In this document: positions 1,805-38,868 of the stretch, piece after piece | How positions within the stretch are numbered: the first letter of the stretch is position 1 | Layout: every line of letters starts with the position of its first letter | Source: Escherichia phage PhiV-1 | DNA length: 39,461 bases | Strand: one strand, 5' to 3' | Sequence record: MT542512 | Made by a program: the position numbers and the translations under genes | Notes under the pieces: generated by a model | The model's input: only the letters and a program-made list of their open reading frames with translations | Told to the model about the DNA's origin: nothing | Databases searched by the model: none

Positions 1805-2908
1805 ATGAACTACACCGACATTCAGGCACGTCTGGCAATCATCAAGTCACTCCCGATTAGCGAACTGGACAAGCGCCAGCCTCTTCTGGTTGCACTGGCT
1901 GCTGACATCGTGAATGGTGAGACAAGCGATGGCAACGACACAGACGGGTCGCAGGGTCTTGAGTATCAGGACTGGTGGCACACCTTGGGTGCACTCATGC
2001 GTGATGCAGGTTTCCGCATGCTGGGTAATGGTCACTTCAGTGCGGCCTACTCGCACGAAATGTTACCGGGTCGAGTCATCAAGGTTGGCTTTAAGAAAGA
2101 GGATTCAGGCGCTGCATACACTGCATTCTGTAGGATGCACCAAGGCCGTGCTGGTATCCCTAACGTCTATCACGTAGCACGTCATGCAGGTTGCTATACG
2201 GTCGTACTGGACCGCTTAAAAAGCTGTGACCGCTACGCTAACGATGTTCACGCAAAGTATGCAAGCGCTGCGCAGGAGTTCATTGAGTGCTCTGGAGGTG
2301 ATGCCGATTGGTACGCACAGTATGTTAGCAAGGAGTTCATTGAGACGTGCAAGATGATTCGTGAGTTCTTCCACGGTATTGCATCTTTCGACATGCACAG
2401 TGGGAACATTATGTTCGATGACAACGATGTCCCGTACATCACTGACCCGGTTAGTTTCTCACATGACCGTGAACGTGAGGATGGTTTCCCTCTGGACCCT
2501 GATGCGTTGATTGCCGAGGTCGAGGCGATAGCTAACGAGCGCATCATTGAACGGTGCCGCAACCGCAAGGCCAAATGTGACCCTAACGGAACCTTTCAGG
2601 TTAACCGCAAGGCCGCAATGAAACGCCGTAAGCGCAACCGCAAGTTACGTGCTAAACATGCAGCGGAAGGAATGCACCAGTTTGTCAAAGAGCGCCTTAA
2701 GCGTAAAGCTATTGACCGAAATGAACGCCGTGCTGAGATGCTCATGGGGTCTGCATGGCATTACGCATGGTTGCATAATGGTAACTCAACGTTCCGCAAG
2801 GTTGAACAAGTGAACGGCCTCAAGTGGCAACTAGGGGACCGCCTAGCAATCCAAGCGGGTCTACCTCTGAACATTGACAAGTTACTTGACGCACAACTGC
2901 AAGGCTGA
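1805..2908 (+). CDS. 0.7: Ser/Thr protein kinase / host shut-off protein
   Basis: 367 aa; strong match to recalled T7 gp0.7 (LGNGHFSAAYSH..RVIKVGFKKEDSGAAYTAFCRM..GIPNVY..HAGCYTVVLD, FDMHSGNIMF, VPYITDPVSFS). Confidence 0.9.
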   Translation: MNYTDIQARLAIIKSLPISELDKRQPLLVALAADIVNGETSDGNDTDGSQGLEYQDWWHTLGALMRDAGFRMLGNGHFSAAYSHEMLPGRVIKVGFKKEDSGAAYTAFCRMHQGRAGIPNVYHVARHAGCYTVVLDRLKSCDRYANDVHAKYASAAQEFIECSGGDADWYAQYVSKEFIETCKMIREFFHGIASFDMHSGNIMFDDNDVPYITDPVSFSHDREREDGFPLDPDALIAEVEAIANERIIERCRNRKAKCDPNGTFQVNRKAAMKRRKRNRKLRAKHAAEGMHQFVKERLKRKAIDRNERRAEMLMGSAWHYAWLHNGNSTFRKVEQVNGLKWQLGDRLAIQAGLPLNIDKLLDAQLQG

Positions 2909-2917
2909 TAAGGTGTA

Positions 2918-2955
2918 TCTTCAAGGTCGGCACTGACTGCTGGCCTTCATAGATA
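2918..2955 (+). promoter_or_regulatory. RNase III-type processing hairpin (R1 position)
   Basis: aaggtcgg...ctggcctt stem with G-U pairs then catagataaac; same family as the sites at 6297, 6817, 13473. Confidence 0.5.
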
Positions 2956-2981
2956 AACTTTCTTAACAACGTGAGGCAACA

Positions 2982-5633
2982 ATGACTAACGTAATCAACG
3001 CACCAAAGAACGACTTCTCTGACATCGCTAACGCAATCCAGCCGTACAACATTCTGGCTGACCATTACGGCGCACAGCTTGCAGCTACGCAGTTACAGCT
3101 TGAGCACGAAGCACACACCGAGGGCGAGAAGCGTTTTCTTAAGGCAATGGAACGTCAAATCAAAGCGGGTGAGTTCGGTGATAACGCAGTGGCTAAACCG
3201 CTCCTGTCATCTCTCGCACCGAAGTTCATCGAGGCGTGGAACACTTGGTTCACCGAGGTGGAAGCGAAGCGTGGCAAGCGTCCAGTAGCCTACAATCTGG
3301 TACAGAAGGTTGCACCTGAAGCGGCCGCTTTCATCACACTGAAGGTCACACTCGCTTGCTTGACGAAAGAAGAGTTCACCAACCTGCAATCGGTCGCCAC
3401 TAAGATTGGTCGCAGTATTGAGGATGAACTGCGTTTTGGTCGCATCCGTGACGAAGAAGCGAAGCACTTTAAGAACCACGTACAGGAGGCACTGAACAAG
3501 CGCGTTGGTATCGTCTACAAGAAAGCATTCATGCAAGCCGTAGAAGGCAAGATGTTAGACGCTGGTCAACTGCAAACCAAGTGGACTACATGGACACCTG
3601 AAGAATCAATTCACGTTGGTGTGCGCATGTTGGAACTGCTCATCGGGTCTACTGGTCTCGTTGAGTTACACCGACCGTTTGCTGGTAACGTTGAGAAGGA
3701 TGGCGAGTACATCCAGTTAACAGAACAATATGTAGACCTGCTATCCAAACGTGCTGGCGCACTGGCTGCAATCGCTCCGATGTATCAGCCTTGCGTGGTC
3801 CCTCCGAAGCCTTGGACTTCTCCGGTTGGTGGTGGCTATTGGGCTGCTGGTCGCAAGCCTCTCTCTCTGGTTCGCACTGGTAGCAAGAAGGGACTTGAGC
3901 GTTACAACGATGTGTATATGCCTGAAGTCTACAAGGCGGTGAACATCGCACAGAATACTCCTTGGAAGATTAACAAGAAGGTTCTGGCAGTGGTCAACGA
4001 GATTGTGAACTGGAAGCATTGCCCGGTTGAAGATGTTCCTGCTCTGGAACGTGGTGAACTGCCTGTCAAACCTGATGACATTGACACCAACGAGGCATCG
4101 CTCAAAGCGTGGAAGAAAGCGGCCTCCGCAATCTACCGCAAAGAGAAGGCACGAGTGTCTCGTCGTATGAGCATGGAGTTCATGTTAGGTCAGGCCAATA
4201 AGTTCGCACAGTTTAAAGCTATCTGGTTCCCGATGAACATGGACTGGCGCGGCCGAGTGTATGCGGTCCCAATGTTTAACCCGCAAGGCAACGACATGAC
4301 CAAAGGCTTGCTGACGCTCGCTAAAGGTAAACCAATCGGTGTCGATGGGTACTACTGGCTGAAGATTCACGGTGCTAACACTGCTGGTGTGGACAAGGTG
4401 GACTTCGCTGAACGCATCAAGTTCATTGATGACAACCACGAGAACATCATGAGCGTTGCGGCTGACCCGATTGCTAACACTTGGTGGGCTGAACAAGACT
4501 CTCCGTTCTGCTTCCTCGCGTTCTGCTTTGAGTATGCGGGAGTCCAGCATCACGGGATGAACTACAACTGCTCTTTACCGCTGGCGTTCGATGGCTCTTG
4601 CTCTGGTATTCAGCACTTCTCCGCAATGCTCCGCGATGAGGTCGGTGGTCGTGCGGTTAACCTGCTTCCAAGCAAAGAGGTACAAGACATCTACCGCATC
4701 GTTGCTGAACGTGTGAACGAGATTATGCAACAGGACGTAATCAACGGAACTGATAACGAAGTGGAAACTGTTATCAACAAGGACACTGGAGAAATCACTG
4801 AGAAGCTCAAGCTGGGTACGAAGGAACTGGCGGGTCAATGGTTGGCCTACGGTGTGACTCGCAAGGTCACTAAGCGTTCGGTCATGACGTTGGCTTACGG
4901 CTCCAAAGAGTATGGCTTCCGTGACCAAGTTCTTGAGGACACAATTCAGCCAGCTATCGACGATGGCAAGGGCTTGATGTTCACTCAACCGAACCAAGCG
5001 GCTGGCTACATGGCTAAACTGATTTGGAATGCTGTAACGGTCACAGTTGTCGCAGCGGTTGAAGCGATGAACTGGTTGAAGTCTGCTGCTAAACTTCTGG
5101 CTGCTGAAGTCAAGGACAAGAAGACCAAAGAGGTTCTCCGCAAGCGTTGCGCAGTACATTGGGTAACTCCTGATGGCTTCCCTGTGTGGCAGGAATACAA
5201 GAAGCCAGTACAGACCCGCTTGAATCTGATGTTCTTAGGCCAGATTCGTCTACAGCCTACCGTGAACACCAACAAGGATAGCGGGATTGATGCTCGTAAA
5301 CAGGAGTCAGGCATCGCACCTAACTTTGTCCACTCAATGGATGGAAGCCACCTGCGCATGACCGTGGTTCGCTCCAATGAGGTCTACGGTGTGGAATCGT
5401 TCGCACTGATTCACGACTCCTTTGGTACTATCCCTGCTGATGCTGGCAACCTGTTTAAAGCAGTGCGTGAAACGATGGTCAACACTTACGAAGAGAACGA
5501 TGTACTTGCAGACTTCTATGAGCAATTTGCTGACCAGTTGCACGAATCACAGCTTGACAAGATGCCTGAGATGCCAGCTAAAGGTTCTCTGGACCTGCAA
5601 GAAATCCTTAAGTCAGACTTTGCGTTTGCCTAA
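2982..5633 (+). CDS. 1: Single-subunit DNA-dependent RNA polymerase
   Basis: 883 aa; co-linear with T7 RNAP as recalled; motifs LAFDGSCSGIQH and HDSFGT; specificity loop R746/N748/R756/Q758 identical to T7. Confidence 0.98.
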   Translation: MTNVINAPKNDFSDIANAIQPYNILADHYGAQLAATQLQLEHEAHTEGEKRFLKAMERQIKAGEFGDNAVAKPLLSSLAPKFIEAWNTWFTEVEAKRGKRPVAYNLVQKVAPEAAAFITLKVTLACLTKEEFTNLQSVATKIGRSIEDELRFGRIRDEEAKHFKNHVQEALNKRVGIVYKKAFMQAVEGKMLDAGQLQTKWTTWTPEESIHVGVRMLELLIGSTGLVELHRPFAGNVEKDGEYIQLTEQYVDLLSKRAGALAAIAPMYQPCVVPPKPWTSPVGGGYWAAGRKPLSLVRTGSKKGLERYNDVYMPEVYKAVNIAQNTPWKINKKVLAVVNEIVNWKHCPVEDVPALERGELPVKPDDIDTNEASLKAWKKAASAIYRKEKARVSRRMSMEFMLGQANKFAQFKAIWFPMNMDWRGRVYAVPMFNPQGNDMTKGLLTLAKGKPIGVDGYYWLKIHGANTAGVDKVDFAERIKFIDDNHENIMSVAADPIANTWWAEQDSPFCFLAFCFEYAGVQHHGMNYNCSLPLAFDGSCSGIQHFSAMLRDEVGGRAVNLLPSKEVQDIYRIVAERVNEIMQQDVINGTDNEVETVINKDTGEITEKLKLGTKELAGQWLAYGVTRKVTKRSVMTLAYGSKEYGFRDQVLEDTIQPAIDDGKGLMFTQPNQAAGYMAKLIWNAVTVTVVAAVEAMNWLKSAAKLLAAEVKDKKTKEVLRKRCAVHWVTPDGFPVWQEYKKPVQTRLNLMFLGQIRLQPTVNTNKDSGIDARKQESGIAPNFVHSMDGSHLRMTVVRSNEVYGVESFALIHDSFGTIPADAGNLFKAVRETMVNTYEENDVLADFYEQFADQLHESQLDKMPEMPAKGSLDLQEILKSDFAFA

Positions 5634-33333: not shown

Positions 33334-33356
33334 CAATACGACTCACTAATGGGAAG
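33334..33356 (+). promoter_or_regulatory. Phage RNAP promoter (phi17)
   Basis: CAATACGACTCACTAATGGGAAG; 5' hairpin gggaaggctcacacagcttccc. Confidence 0.7.
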
Positions 33357-33403: not shown

Positions 33404-35371
33404 ATGGCTAACAAGATTCGTACTGTGATGACTTACCCACTTAATGGTGCCGTGAACTTCACGATTACCTTTGAGTATCTGGCACGTAAGTTCATCCAAG
33501 TGACACTCATTGGTAAAGACCGTAAAGAACTGGTTCTCAATCAGGACTACCGTTTTACCAGTAAGACTCAAATTACTACTACCCGTGCGTGGACTGCTGC
33601 TGATGGCTACCAGATGATTGAGATTCGTCGATTCACTTCGGCTACTGACCGTCTGGTTGACTTTGCCGATGGCTCAATCCTCCGTGCGTATGACCTGAAC
33701 ATCTCGCAGATTCAAACACTGCATGTTGCCGAAGAAGCACGAGACCTCACTGCGGATACCATTGGTGTCAACAATGATGGTCACTTAGATGCTCGTGGTC
33801 GTAAGATTGTTAACTTGGCGTATGCCACAAGTGACTATGATGCCGTTCCTTTAAAGCAGGTTAAAGAGCGTGAATCCTCTGCATGGAATGCTGTGACAAA
33901 AGCTAACGAACACGCTGACAGGGCCAATAAGGAAGCAAACCGTTCTCGTGATGAGGCCAACCGTGCCCAACGTGAAGCTGACCGCTCAACGCAACAGGCA
34001 GGTGTCTCTACACAACAAGCAGTTGAGGCCAAGAAGCAAGCTGACCGTTCTAACTCTGAGGCTAACCGAGCTAAAGGTTATGCTGATAGTATGACCGCAA
34101 GTGTCGCTGAGGCCAAGAAGCAAGCTGACCGTTCCACCTCTGAGGCCAATCGTGCCCGTGATGAGGCCAATCGTGCTGCCGGAGAAGTGACTAAAGCTGC
34201 TGCTGAGGTTGCCAAGGCTGCTGCACACGTTGAGACCGCTAAGAGTCACGCCAATCGTGCTAACACTGAGGCAGAACGCTCTAAGAGTGAAGCCGACCGT
34301 GCTAAAACCGAGGCTGACAAGCTGGGTAATATGAATGAATTAGCTGAGGCCATCGACAGGGTTGATGCTCCTGATGTTTACTTCAAGAGGAATGTTATAG
34401 CCGGACACAAATTGGAGACTTCTGGAGGCTCGCATCTTCACCCTAATGAGATTAAATTGGTTAACAATAAATCTCCAGACCAGCACTTCATTGTACAAGC
34501 GTGGGGAACTGGAGACCCTAATAATAGGTCGCAGGTGTTTGAGTTAAAGGATAACTTGGGTCCGTACGCATTCTATATCCAGCGCCAGAAGAAGACAGAC
34601 CAAACTTGGCAAATGAGTGTGAACGGTACTGTTAGCTGCGTATCCATCGAGGCTGGCAAGGGTTTCATCTCTAAGGACAGTACAGGCTCCATTCAGATGA
34701 AGACTTGGGGGGGTGGTTGGAACCAATGGACTTCTAATGCTGTTCCAGACATTCAGCACGATATTGAGGCCCAACATGATGCTGCTTATCTTCTGGAGAG
34801 GGCTACCATTTGGGGTAAGGAGCATTTATACGCAAAACAACTGTACAATAATGGCACTGGCGCAAACTTCTTTATTCGCCACTACCTACGAGGCTCTTAC
34901 TTCGACTTCCGCTCTGATGGTACTCTTATCAGTTCCACCGGATGGAATATCCCGGCAGATGGAAACCTGTACATCAAGAAATATGGACTATATATTGATG
35001 CGTGGGTTAACAAGCGCTTGGGCGAACACGCCTACAACAAGAGCGAGACAAACAACCTAGTGAATGGTCGATTGACACAAGCGCAAGCTGATGGTCGCTA
35101 CATTCGCAAGAACGCTGGTTGGGCTGAGGTCTGGAGCGGCTCTGCTGGTGGTGGTGTTTCCGTAGGTCTCTCACAGGATGTTCGTTGGAGAACCATCTGG
35201 ATTCAAACTCAAGGCAGATGGAACCCTGTTCAGATTGGTGATAATGGTGCTTACTACATCTCGTCTAATGGTGGGTGGTTGAAGTTCACCATCTCTAATA
35301 ACGGTAGGACGTTCCGTAACGATGAGGACAGGACTTCTGTTCCTACGAGAATCTTGATTCAAAACCAATAA
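33404..35371 (+). CDS. 17: Tail fibre protein
   Basis: 655 aa; N-terminal about 150 aa and C-terminal tip (AWTQVWSGSAGGGVSV..SQD.R.R.IWI...SNG..F.N..D.RSVP) match T7 gp17; central coiled-coil longer than in T7 (553 aa). Confidence 0.95.
   Translation: MANKIRTVMTYPLNGAVNFTITFEYLARKFIQVTLIGKDRKELVLNQDYRFTSKTQITTTRAWTAADGYQMIEIRRFTSATDRLVDFADGSILRAYDLNISQIQTLHVAEEARDLTADTIGVNNDGHLDARGRKIVNLAYATSDYDAVPLKQVKERESSAWNAVTKANEHADRANKEANRSRDEANRAQREADRSTQQAGVSTQQAVEAKKQADRSNSEANRAKGYADSMTASVAEAKKQADRSTSEANRARDEANRAAGEVTKAAAEVAKAAAHVETAKSHANRANTEAERSKSEADRAKTEADKLGNMNELAEAIDRVDAPDVYFKRNVIAGHKLETSGGSHLHPNEIKLVNNKSPDQHFIVQAWGTGDPNNRSQVFELKDNLGPYAFYIQRQKKTDQTWQMSVNGTVSCVSIEAGKGFISKDSTGSIQMKTWGGGWNQWTSNAVPDIQHDIEAQHDAAYLLERATIWGKEHLYAKQLYNNGTGANFFIRHYLRGSYFDFRSDGTLISSTGWNIPADGNLYIKKYGLYIDAWVNKRLGEHAYNKSETNNLVNGRLTQAQADGRYIRKNAGWAEVWSGSAGGGVSVGLSQDVRWRTIWIQTQGRWNPVQIGDNGAYYISSNGGWLKFTISNNGRTFRNDEDRTSVPTRILIQNQ
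33948..34175 (+). repeat. Internal direct repeats within tail-fibre shaft coding region
   Basis: 26-bp exact repeat gaggccaagaagcaagctgaccgttc at 34025-34050 and 34109-34134; cgtgatgaggccaa(c/t)cgtgc at 33948 and 34157. Confidence 0.65.
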
Positions 35372-35625: not shown

Positions 35626-35881
35626 ATCTTTGATTCAATTCCTTGAGATGCTGGACACTGAGATGGCTCAACGTATGCTTGCTGACTTGCAGAACGATGA
35701 ACGCCGTACACCTCAACTGTACAACGCAATCGGGAAACTGTTAGAACGCCACAAGTTCCAAGTCTCCAAGTTACAGCCAGACCGTAACATCCTTGGTGGA
35801 CTGGCAGATGGACTTCAGGAGTATCAGAACCTAGTAGGTGACGATGGTCTCACTGAAGATGAGAAGTACACGCTGAACTGA
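35615..35881 (+). CDS. 18: Terminase small subunit
   Basis: 88 aa; DKSLI.FLEMLDT.MAQRMLADL...ERR.PQLYNAI.KLL.RHKFQ..KLQPD..ILGGLA as in T7 gp18. Confidence 0.9.
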   Translation: MSDKSLIQFLEMLDTEMAQRMLADLQNDERRTPQLYNAIGKLLERHKFQVSKLQPDRNILGGLADGLQEYQNLVGDDGLTEDEKYTLN

Positions 35882-35885
35882 TGGA

Positions 35886-35925
35886 ATAACTCAAGGCCAC
35901 TACATCTAGTGGTCTTTATGATATT
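35886..35925 (+). promoter_or_regulatory. RNase III-type processing hairpin (R18.5 position)
   Basis: aaggccacta-catc-tagtggtctt 10-bp stem then tatgatattt. Confidence 0.5.
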
Positions 35926-35979
35926 TCAACACAACTCACGGTGACGCTACGTGAAATCTGAAAATACGGGAGGGTAGTT

Positions 35980-36423
35980 ATGCTCAAGAATTTAAAGAGC
36001 TACGTCATAATCGCTGCGTTTGCCTTGGGGATGACCCTTGCGTACAACCACGGCTATGACAAGGCTAACACTAAATGGGAACAGGAGGTGCACAATGAGT
36101 ACGTTAAGAAAGTTAAGGCGACTGAGGATAAACAGGCTGCTATCAACGAAGTCTCACGACAATACCAAGAAGACCTTGCGGCGCTGGAAGGCAGCACTGA
36201 TAGGGTCATTAATGATTTGCGTAACGATGGTAAGCGGCTGCGTGTCAAACTATCAGCCACCTCACGAGAACTCCAAGCTAACGGTGGATGCCTCGTTGAT
36301 GGTCGAGCCGAACTTGACGAAGAGTTTAGTAAGCGTCTTATCGGAGTAACACAAAGAGGGGATGCGTGGATTAAAGCGCTCCAAAATACAATAACTGAAA
36401 TGCAATCTAAGAAGGAGAAATAA
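35980..36423 (+). CDS. 18.5: i-spanin (Rz-like)
   Basis: 147 aa; N-terminal TM (YVIIAAFALGMTLAY) plus coiled coil; matches T7 gp18.5 position. Confidence 0.9.
   Translation: MLKNLKSYVIIAAFALGMTLAYNHGYDKANTKWEQEVHNEYVKKVKATEDKQAAINEVSRQYQEDLAALEGSTDRVINDLRNDGKRLRVKLSATSRELQANGGCLVDGRAELDEEFSKRLIGVTQRGDAWIKALQNTITEMQSKKEK
36095..36349 (+). CDS. 18.7: o-spanin (Rz1-like lipoprotein) embedded in +1 frame of Rz
   Basis: 84 aa from ATG 36095 (RBS aggaggtg); lipobox-like VSGC; SLMVEPNLT as in T7 gp18.7. Confidence 0.75.
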   Translation: MSTLRKLRRLRINRLLSTKSHDNTKKTLRRWKAALIGSLMICVTMVSGCVSNYQPPHENSKLTVDASLMVEPNLTKSLVSVLSE

Positions 36424-36424
36424 T

Positions 36425-36982
36425 ATGGCTACTACAAACTCAAGAACCCGCACACTCTGGACCATCAATGGTCGCTCACCGGACAGCCGGGATATGTACG
36501 ACCGAAACAATGTTGGCCTTCGTGTTGGGCGCATCGACATCCCAGCGTCAGAAATGGTCAAGGTAGATGGCTACGACAAGGTTGAATACGTGGTGCAACT
36601 GAGTGATGGCACAACCGAGCAACATGCTACGTTTGAGACCTTGATGTCCACTTGGGGTGGCTCCGTAGAGTCTAAACCGGGTAGTGGGTTCATGACGGTA
36701 TTTCTGAATGAGCAAAGCACTGAGCGGCTCGGTATGGTTCGAATCGACGTATACAAAGAGTGGACTGGTGCTGACCCTGAGCCGGAAGGTGGTGTGGCTT
36801 CATTAGTTAGTGCAACGCTTTCTGCGTCTGATAGTGCATTTGGTACACAGTTCGTGGATAGCGAAGGGAAGAGCGCTTCCGTTATGTTCCAACCTAGTAA
36901 CATCGACGGGGCTGTATCTAAGACCGACACTATCAAGGCTCTTGAGAAGCGCATCGCTGCCTTAGAGAAATCTGCCGAGTAA
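36425..36982 (+). CDS. Hypothetical protein, unassigned; no T7/T3 counterpart recalled at this locus
   Basis: 185 aa; strong RBS gaaggagaaataatATG; acidic S/T/G-rich with C-terminal amphipathic tail TIKALEKRIAALEKSAE. Confidence 0.6.
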   Translation: MATTNSRTRTLWTINGRSPDSRDMYDRNNVGLRVGRIDIPASEMVKVDGYDKVEYVVQLSDGTTEQHATFETLMSTWGGSVESKPGSGFMTVFLNEQSTERLGMVRIDVYKEWTGADPEPEGGVASLVSATLSASDSAFGTQFVDSEGKSASVMFQPSNIDGAVSKTDTIKALEKRIAALEKSAE

Positions 36983-36997
36983 CAATAGGAGGCCATA

Positions 36998-38758
36998 ATG
37001 TCACAATCCCAAGAAGCTAAGAATGCGCTCATCATTGCGCAACTCAAGGGTGACTTCGTGGCCTTCCTGTTCGTCTTATGGAAGGCTCTGAACTTACCTA
37101 AACCAACCAAGTGTCAGATTGATATGGCACGAACACTCGCTAATGGAGACCACAAGAAGTTTATCCTTCAGGCGTTCCGTGGTATCGGCAAGTCCTTTAT
37201 CACCTGTGCGTTCGTTGTGTGGGTCTTATGGCGTGACCCTCAACTTAAGGTGCTCATTGTGTCTGCCTCTAAGGAACGTGCGGATGCTAACTCCATCTTC
37301 ATCAAGAACATCATCGACCTCTTACCGTTCCTCTCTGAGTTGAAACCTCGACCGGGACAGCGAGACTCCGTGATTAGCTTTGATGTTGGCTTGGCTAAAC
37401 CCGACCACTCACCTTCTGTGAAGTCTGTGGGTATTACTGGTCAGTTGACTGGTAGCCGTGCTGACATCATTATTGCAGATGACGTTGAGGTTCCCGGTAA
37501 TAGCTCTACGAGTTCTGCCCGTGAGAAGCTCTGGACGTTGGTAACTGAGTTTGCTGCATTGCTTAAGCCGCTGCCTACCTCTCGTGTTATCTACCTTGGC
37601 ACACCTCAAACCGAGATGACGCTCTACAAGGAACTTGAGGATAACAAAGGGTACAGCACAGTAATCTGGCCAGCACAGTATCCTCGTAATGATGCTGAGG
37701 CTCTCTACTATGGGGACCGCTTGGCTCCGATGCTTAAGGCTGAGTACGACGAGGGCTTTGAGTTACTCCGTGGTCAACCTACTGACCCTGTTCGATTCGA
37801 CATGGATGACCTCCGTGAACGTGAACTCGAATATGGCAAAGCTGGCTACACTCTTCAGTTCATGCTTAACCCGAACCTTAGTGATGCCGAGAAGTACCCA
37901 CTACGACTCCGTGACGCTATCGTGTGCGCTGTGGACCCTGAACGTGCCCCATTGTCTTACCAGTGGTTGCCGAACCGTCAGAACCGCAATGAGGAACTCC
38001 CTAACGTTGGTCTGAAGGGTGATGACATCCATGCGTTCCATACGTGCTCTTCTCGTACCGCTGAGTATCAGTCTAAGATTCTGGTCATTGACCCAAGTGG
38101 TCGTGGTAAGGATGAGACCGGGTATGCAGTCCTCTACTCACTGAACGGTTACATCTACCTGATGGAAGTCGGAGGGTTCCGTGGTGGCTACGATGATGCT
38201 ACCCTAGAGAAGCTCGCTAAGAAGGCCAAGCAGTGGAAGGTACAGACAGTCGTCCACGAGTCCAACTTCGGTGATGGTATGTTCGGTAAGATTTTCTCTC
38301 CGATTCTCCTGAAGCACCATAAGTGTGCCTTAGAGGAAATCCGTGCTAAGGGCATGAAGGAGATGCGAATCTGCGATACTATCGAGCCGTTGATGGGTGC
38401 ACACAAGCTGGTCATCCGTGATGAGGTCATCCGTGAGGACTACCAGACTGCCCGTGACCTTGATGGGAAACATGATGTCCGCTACAGTGCGTTCTATCAG
38501 ATGACACGTATGACCCGTGAGCGAGGCGCTGTGGCACACGATGACCGCATTGATGCTATCGCATTGGGTATCGAATATCTCCGCGAGGGGATGCTTGTGG
38601 ACAGCCGTGTAGGTGAAGAAGAGATGACCCTTGAGTTCCTTGAACACCACATGGAGAAACAGACCATTGGTGGCGACCAGATTCATAGCTTTGATGTTGG
38701 GGGTGTGGACATCTACTATGAGGATGAGGACGGAGGTTCTAGCTTCATTGAGTGGTAA
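36998..38758 (+). CDS. 19: Terminase large subunit
   Basis: 586 aa; Walker A-like GIGKSF; strong match to recalled T7 gp19. Confidence 0.98.
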
Positions 38759-38845
38759 TAGATAAGTATGCGGGAAAGGTGCATAGGTAAGCACTTAGTA
38801 CCGCTACGTTACCATCAAGTAACTTACTGATATACATGAAGAAAT

Positions 38846-38868
38846 TAATACGACTCACTATTGGGAAG
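38846..38868 (+). promoter_or_regulatory. Phage RNAP promoter (phiOR position)
   Basis: TAATACGACTCACTATTGGGAAG followed by cttaaag repeats. Confidence 0.7.

Follow-up and report, generated by a model that had tools for sequence, protein, structure and literature searches.

A modular, possibly fibre-like protein is encoded in a recurrent gene slot between the spanin and large terminase genes of phage PhiV-1

In the sequence records of phages T7 and T3 the spanin genes 18.5/18.7 are followed directly by gene 19, after 21 nt in T7 and 9 nt in T3, with no ORF in the gap. At the same junction Escherichia phage PhiV-1, a BA14-like Berlinvirus, carries an additional reading frame, which raises the question of whether it is an insertion peculiar to this genome and what its product may do. 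The window analysed is the whole stretch of 39,461 nucleotides of record MT542512, in which the ORF occupies positions 36425..36982 on the plus strand. It is intact, 558 bp long, begins with ATG and ends with TAA, and its 185-aa product has exactly the sequence of QLF85797.1, which is annotated in Escherichia phage PhiV-1 as a "hypothetical protein". A sequence-only reading of the window had reported an ORF with a strong ribosome-binding site (RBS) between the spanin genes and gene 19, and had described a direct succession of these genes in T7 and T3; the ORF was present exactly as described, and the T7 and T3 records agreed.

The slot is bordered on the left by gene 18.5 (i-spanin; 35980..36423), within which gene 18.7 (o-spanin; about 36095-36349) is embedded, and on the right by gene 19 (large terminase; 36998..38758), the start of which agrees with the PhiV-1 terminase DNA given in Table S3 of a preprint; genes 18.5 and 19 are both on the plus strand. 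The Shine-Dalgarno motif AAGGAG (36412..36417, plus strand) lies within the last codons of gene 18.5, 7 nt ahead of the ATG of the ORF, and the TAA stop codon of gp18.5 (36421-36423) ends 1 nt ahead of it. Since this stop abuts the ATG, the ORF is probably translationally coupled to gene 18.5, and a tight junction or overlap with 18.5 was also seen in BA14, the Yersinia phages, JA10 and YpEc11. Gene 19 starts 15 nt 3′ of the ORF and has its own AGGAGG motif at 36987-36992. The conservation of residues 1-23 across the family favours the first ATG as the start codon. In phage ETEP21B the orthologue (fragment 2570-3058) is annotated as beginning 23 codons late, giving a protein of 162 aa with two transmembrane (TM) domains; neither the late start nor the TM domains, which stem from the truncated start, agree with the conserved N-terminal residues and the hydropathy profile.

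A consensus search over the whole window located 12 phage promoter sites corresponding to AATACGACTCACTATTGGGA with three mismatches or fewer (0 expected by chance), all on the plus strand and ranging from position 425 to 38847. These sites and the exact protein match together mark the window as the complete genome of PhiV-1. The nearest one upstream of the ORF is phi17 (33335..33354), for which the annotation of BA14 was also used, and the next is phiOR (38847-38866); no promoter directly serving the ORF was found between the two. Therefore, the ORF belongs to the late transcription unit and has no promoter of its own, in keeping with its earlier placement in the late unit downstream of phi17. 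A stable hairpin at 35893-35916 (context 35880-35935), located between genes 18 and 18.5, has a 10-bp stem and a folding energy of -17.1 kcal/mol (z = -4.95 relative to shuffled sequences). A terminator is annotated at the equivalent site in ETEP21B, and T7 has an RNase III site, R18.5, at this position; the hairpin would delimit a message comprising 18.5, 18.7, the ORF and 19. On the downstream side, the distance from the stop codon of gene 19 to phiOR is only about 90 nt (38758-38866).

The ORF is a genuine late gene, and purifying selection acts on it. Comparison with four orthologues gave dN/dS values of 0.08-0.23 overall and 0.07-0.12 for the N-terminal two thirds, and the cosine of codon usage to that of gp17 plus gp19 was 0.87 in the ORF frame as against 0.68 or less in the other five frames. 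With a GC content of 51%, the ORF has the composition of its neighbours, and it shares their codon usage. An antisense ORF of 179 codons (36571..37110, minus strand) overlaps the ORF and the beginning of gene 19. With a worse dN/dS (0.18-0.37) and codon usage than the forward frame, it was rejected as a gene; it is most likely an artefact of the codon bias of the forward gene.

The same slot was found to be occupied in many relatives of PhiV-1. A 185-aa protein with 93-96% aa identity is encoded there in 16 phage records, including duplicate RefSeq/GenBank entries (BA14, 285P, FE44, P483, S523, ETEP21B, BSP161, PZJ0206, CarlSpitteler and nasanit). Diverged versions occur in the slot of Yersinia Berlinviruses, namely Berlin, Yep-phi, Yepe2, YpP-G, vB_YpP_T3, the AKS series, PYps50T and Altay-2017. 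The slot protein of the Helsettvirus YpEc11 is 43% identical to the PhiV-1 version, and those of the Ningirsuvirus JA10 and Erwinia phage pEp_SNUABM_11 are remote (about 20% identity). The remote members are bridged by a metagenomic protein, P0026, which combines the N-terminal domain of the family with a C-terminal half that is approximately 59% identical to the slot proteins of pEp_SNUABM_11 and Pantoea phage Bubbas and 39% identical to that of JA10. The position between 18.5 and 19 was verified in PhiV-1, BA14, ETEP21B, Altay-2017, vB_YpP_T3, PYps50T, BSP161, JA10, pEp_SNUABM_11 and YpEc11. BA14 ACF15774.1, Yepe2 ACF15725.1 and Yep-phi ADQ83196.1 are known entries of the family from the same slot (PHROG 20446/27102), and these two PHROGs represent the same protein family at the same position, with entries that carry no function.

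The native GC content and codon usage, together with the occupation of the same slot in relatives, argue that the ORF is a resident occupant of a recurrent slot and not an insertion private to PhiV-1, and a recent horizontal insertion was ruled out by the native composition and the synteny across genera. The sequence-only reading had presented the gene as inserted between the spanin pair and the large terminase; with filled slots in BA14, 285P, FE44, Berlin, Yepe2, Yep-phi, YpEc11, JA10 and others, the gene is not peculiar to this genome. The reading was right in calling the product unassigned, since the slot protein is annotated everywhere as "unknown product" or "hypothetical": well-known T7-group phages do have the same gene at this locus, but no function is assigned to it there.

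Not every relative has retained the gene. Escherichia phage Carena (fragment 1013-1240) encodes an in-frame remnant of 75 aa, in which residues 1-41 are joined to residues 151-185, and this protein is also a representative of the metagenome library (P0025). In vB_ShiP-A7 and Enterobacter phage B1, both of which have virion proteomes, the spanin genes are followed directly by the terminase gene and the gene is absent. Its absence or in-frame deletion in viable relatives indicates that the gene is dispensable. Dispensability, the 75-aa remnant of Carena and the lack of the gene in some relatives would be compatible with a chance or decaying reading frame, but such a reading is barely credible in view of the low dN/dS (0.07-0.23), the intact state of the ORF in all of more than 50 records, the conservation of the N-terminal domain down to about 35% identity across genera, and the strong RBS and native codon usage. 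Judging from the conservation pattern, it is already refuted.

The 185-aa protein has a pI of 4.77, an S+T+G content of 29% and a GRAVY of -0.42, and no TM segment was detected (maximum Kyte-Doolittle value over 19 residues, 0.87), so that the earlier description of an acidic, Ser/Thr/Gly-rich product without TM segment could be upheld, as could that of an amphipathic C-terminal helix (see below). Alignments and AlphaFold2 (AF2) divide the protein into three parts: a compact beta-rich N-terminal domain, a three-strand segment predicted with low confidence, and a long terminal helix. The N-domain (aa 1-121; 36425..36787), which was also delimited by a deep profile search and has a pLDDT of about 80-90, defines the family and is always located at the extreme N-terminus. 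Its invariant residues include G16, R17, D20, S21, R22, D26, R36, D38 and P40, and it contains a conserved charged stretch, N-G-R-x-P-D-S-R-D ... G-R-I-D-I-P, and an invariant D-P-E-P-E end. The second part is a Ser/Ala-rich three-strand beta segment (aa 122-158; 36788..36898; pLDDT 58-73), which is shared by the short-type proteins P0004, P0005, P0021, P0024 and YpEc11_43 and is replaced by fibre-derived modules elsewhere. The third part, NIDGAVSKTDTIKALEKRIAALEKSAE (aa 159-185; 36899..36979), is a 27-residue amphipathic helix with a clean heptad register (a = I, d = L) of two to three heptads; its pattern, I-x-A-L-E-K-R-I-A-A-L-E-K-P-A, is kept in the short and long types as well as in the Carena remnant. 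We infer from this that the heptad helix may serve as an oligomerisation element, probably for trimerisation. Only a monomer was predicted with AF2, and the heptad pattern is compatible with a homotrimer nucleated by a C-terminal element.

Database comparisons placed the protein exclusively in families annotated as of unknown function. In the PHROG scan the full length (aa 1-185) matched phrog_20446 with an E-value of 3.3e-125 and the N-domain matched phrog_27102 (E 1e-46); a weak match of aa 134-185 was to a 'head-tail connector' family (E 0.065). The Pfam scan of the ORF gave no match at E below 1, the sequence-profile search of the PDB returned only weak matches to designed coiled coils (E about 0.6), and Foldseek against the PDB found no confident fold relative for the N-domain (E above 0.01, TM below 0.25).

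The family is tiny: a profile built from the first 124 residues and run against 1.84 billion representative proteins yielded only 19 representative matches, 15 of them with E below 1e-10. Members are 185-269 aa long and the N-domain makes up residues 1-120 in every full-length one. Immediately after the DPEPE motif, the aligned proteins diverge into interchangeable modules. The short type, that of PhiV-1, has a beta segment of about 35 aa followed by the heptad helix, and it is also seen in members with N-domains that are only 35-50% identical to that of PhiV-1. The long type of the Yersinia phages has a module of roughly 100 aa ahead of the heptad helix, the P0016 type continues after the N-domain as a long coiled coil, and several other forms of the family end in "...IKxALGI". 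In the metagenomic protein P0004 (208 aa) the C-terminal unit 'NIDGAV..TNTIKALEKR..ALE' is duplicated in tandem, and YpEc11_43 and P0008 have additional heptad blocks. The alignments thus point to a helical end that varies in length within the family, like fibre shafts. The AF2 model of the 256-aa Yersinia long variant was poor in the extra module (pLDDT 34-65), which was left out of the fold search.

The replaceable modules led to tail fibres. The middle module of the 256-aa Yersinia proteins matched the tail-fibre family phrog_6578 with E-values of 3.5e-6 to 2e-4, and by tblastn it matched an annotated tail fibre in Xanthomonas phage RTH11 (E 4e-8) as well as lateral tail fibres in rV5-like phages (E about 3e-3); a word-indexed protein search with this module alone gave no match. 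Both matches are internal to the fibre, at about aa 442-535 in the first, of 2203 aa, and at about aa 859-978 in the second, of 1479 aa. Similarly, P0016 leaves the N-domain at the linker "ADPEADPDAV..." and continues as a coiled-coil shaft of the gp17 type, with 52% identity to the tail fibre of Yersinia phage WW1 (E 7e-12) and 49% to that of Shigella phage A7 (E 3e-10). The matched residues of WW1 gp17 (~146-209) fall exactly on the end of the Phage_T7_tail anchor (1-154) and the start of the coiled-coil shaft. The P0016 segment also matched phrog_4242 (E 5.5e-9), to which PhiV-1 gp17 belongs (E 1e-244), and a direct BLASTP comparison of P0016 with PhiV-1 gp17 was insignificant (E 0.11), the homology being clear only relative to the WW1 and A7 fibres. 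Matches between coiled coils may be compositional; the homology of P0016 to the WW1 and A7 fibres was accepted because the alignment includes a non-repetitive junction motif, DA-x-L-x-TVKQW-DGA-QSY. These alignments indicate that two independent variants of the family contain genuine tail-fibre sequence and that, in P0016, the N-domain of the family occupies the place of the virion anchor of the fibre.

Among known protein classes, gp17 of the T7 type has the same layout as the ORF product, that is, an N-terminal globular domain, a linker and a coiled coil; it is encoded by a late gene of the same transcription unit, and P0016 carries a real gp17-type shaft start at the equivalent linker. The PhiV-1 protein itself has only two to three heptads where P0016 has a true gp17-shaft segment. 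The ORF product differs from gp17, however, in being three to four times shorter, without a tip domain in the PhiV-1 version, and in being encoded by a dispensable gene four genes downstream. No match to PF03906 (Phage_T7_tail) was obtained for the ORF product in Pfam at E below 1, whereas the control, PhiV-1 gp17, matched at 3e-51, and hhalign of the N-domain profile with aa 1-165 of gp17 returned a probability of 0.2%; both results rule out the N-domain as a diverged gp17 anchor. A resemblance in presumed mechanism may be drawn to T4 fibritin (wac), a small and dispensable trimeric coiled-coil accessory fibre with N-terminal virion attachment and a C-terminal trimerisation element, which assists fibre function and is not the main receptor binder. 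Fibritin is mostly coiled coil, whereas the ORF product is dominated by the beta-rich N-domain, and Pfam, PDB profile and fold searches detected no sequence or fold similarity between them. Membrane or lysis proteins such as spanins and holins were ruled out by hydropathy, there being no TM segment, signal peptide or lipobox. An HNH homing endonuclease was likewise rejected, as there was no Pfam match and the HNH gene of relatives lies after gene 19 and not in the slot; it is present in ETEP21B, Altay-2017 and apparently vB_YpP_T3, and absent in PhiV-1 and BA14.

Searches of the literature, Pfam and the PDB returned no functional or proteomic statement on the gene, no Pfam family and no solved structure. 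A whole-genome expression library of PhiV-1 has been described in a preprint (bioRxiv 10.64898/2026.04.30.721860), in which toxicity is reported for gp0.3, gp0.7, gp4 and gp10 only, and triggering of Avs2, Avs3 and Upx for gp19 only. By indirect implication, the ORF product would be neither toxic nor a trigger of these three systems. The Upx trigger of PhiV-1 is itself disputed, being gp16 or the large terminase gp19 according to the source (PMC13099982 vs bioRxiv 10.64898/2026.04.30.721860).

The gene is thus a conserved, late, low-level and dispensable one, with a soluble product made up of a conserved N-domain, a replaceable middle and a heptad helix. As to its role, the evidence suggests a virion-associated or late accessory protein, a direction favoured because variants carry tail-fibre modules. 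The reading that we prefer, with a probability of roughly 0.45, is that of an accessory protein of the phage particle that is small, modular and fibre-like, probably trimeric, and equipped with a new anchor domain. According to this reading, the C-terminal helix, or the coiled-coil modules in the variants, would bring the protein together as an oligomer, most likely a trimer like the donor fibres, since trimers are the only functional form of the borrowed modules and since the folding of fibres typically starts from a nucleating element at the C-terminus. The N-domain would play the part of the Phage_T7_tail anchor and dock on a conserved component of the virion, at a site other than that of gp17. 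On some hosts, the resulting accessory fibre or whisker may aid adsorption, the deployment of fibres or the stability of the particle, and it would be dispensable for plaque formation. In PhiV-1 it would be reduced to a short stub, in which three N-domains are followed by a short beta neck and by two to three heptads of coiled coil. The polarity could also be the opposite, with the N-domain as a functional head and not an anchor. More doubtful is a broader proposal, namely that many Studiervirinae (members of Berlinvirus, Helsettvirus and Ningirsuvirus as well as Erwinia phages, with T7 and T3 as exceptions) possess a hitherto overlooked second fibre system, a mini-fibre or whisker docking away from the gp17 socket. 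Its distal part would be swapped by recombination, both with shafts of gp17 and with fibres from phages that are unrelated, so that adsorption or host range would be tuned independently of gp17.

The fibre-like reading has to be weighed against others, the main one being a non-structural late protein. Such a protein, a cytoplasmic coiled-coil oligomer acting in anti-defence, in the modulation of packaging or lysis timing, or in host adaptation, with the fibre modules used as mere oligomerisation scaffolds, would suit a gene placed between those for lysis and packaging and coupled to that of the spanin. The patchy distribution and dispensability typical of accessory genes, the acidic and soluble nature of the protein, and the conserved charged loop GRxPDSRD...GRIDIP, which could be a site for a ligand or partner, are also consistent with it. 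We consider it somewhat unlikely, as true tail-fibre segments at the anchor-to-shaft linker in two independent variants are hard to explain for a cytoplasmic factor; moreover, no Pfam or PADLOC-type enzymatic signature was found, and the PhiV-1 gene library, though indirectly, implies neither toxicity nor triggering of Avs2, Avs3 or Upx. Dispensability is equally a feature of known decoration proteins and head fibres, and the architecture, with a beta domain at the N-terminus and a trimerising spike at the C-terminus, would fit a decoration of the capsid or neck in the style of phage L Dec or the phi29 head fibre gp8.5, with the N-domain on the capsid lattice or portal-neck and the helix pointing outward. 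The weak 'head-tail connector' match mentioned above might be taken in its favour. This arrangement, to which we assign a low probability, is really a sub-case of the fibre-like accessory protein with a different docking site.

A helper of fibre assembly, comparable to T4 gp57A, fibritin or Tfa, would pair transiently with the shaft or tip of gp17 for trimer folding or attachment and might stay on the particle. Proteins of the Tfa type (Caudo_TAP, PF02413) are about 190-200 aa long and combine a conserved domain at the N-terminus with a C-terminal part that varies, a size and layout that recur in the slot proteins (about 185-270 aa); the gp17-shaft-like segment of P0016 could pair with gp17, and a helper may be dispensable. 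This explanation is improbable nonetheless. Pfam scans found no match to PF02413 in the ORF product or in nine relatives, nor any other Pfam match, and the gene is not adjacent to that of gp17, 17.5, 18 and 18.5/18.7 lying in between. In JA10 the fibre gene is immediately followed by an annotated tail-fibre assembly gene and in pEp_SNUABM_11 by an unannotated ORF, yet both phages have the slot protein as well; vB_ShiP-A7 has a similar long gp17 and lacks the gene. The C-terminus is furthermore decoupled from the fibre tip: the gp17 proteins of PYps50T and BSP161 are 88% identical over the last 250 residues, yet PYps50T has the long and BSP161 the short type, and Altay-2017 and vB_YpP_T3 have gp17 proteins that are 98% identical, yet different ORF C-termini. 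This failure of the C-terminal type to co-vary with gp17 rules out a chaperone of the gp17 tip in particular.

The sequence of the gene can be found in dozens of public genomes; the apparent novelty lies in recognising a protein that is family-wide, slot-specific and modular and that exchanges modules with tail fibres. Few viruses are better understood than the T7-like phages, and descriptions of their particle usually include a single type of fibre, gp17. If the fibre-like reading is true, a second, exchangeable fibre-like component would be a determinant of host interaction that engineering and host-range prediction have ignored, and the N-domain would represent a new virion-docking domain. 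The slot gene is present in phages used for plague diagnostics (Yep-phi, Berlin), in therapy candidates and in a model for bacterial immunity (PhiV-1). Should the protein prove to be non-structural, it would still be the product of a conserved late gene of a model phage, of modest general interest. PhiV-1 is routinely grown and edited in several laboratories, so the question is cheap to settle.

With regard to gp17 itself, the PhiV-1 protein (33404-35371) has 655 aa and is about 100 aa longer than T7 gp17, which has 553 aa; a long repetitive coiled coil of ANR..EADRS units follows the anchor. It has no Peptidase_S74 chaperone domain, and the related WW1 fibre has one.
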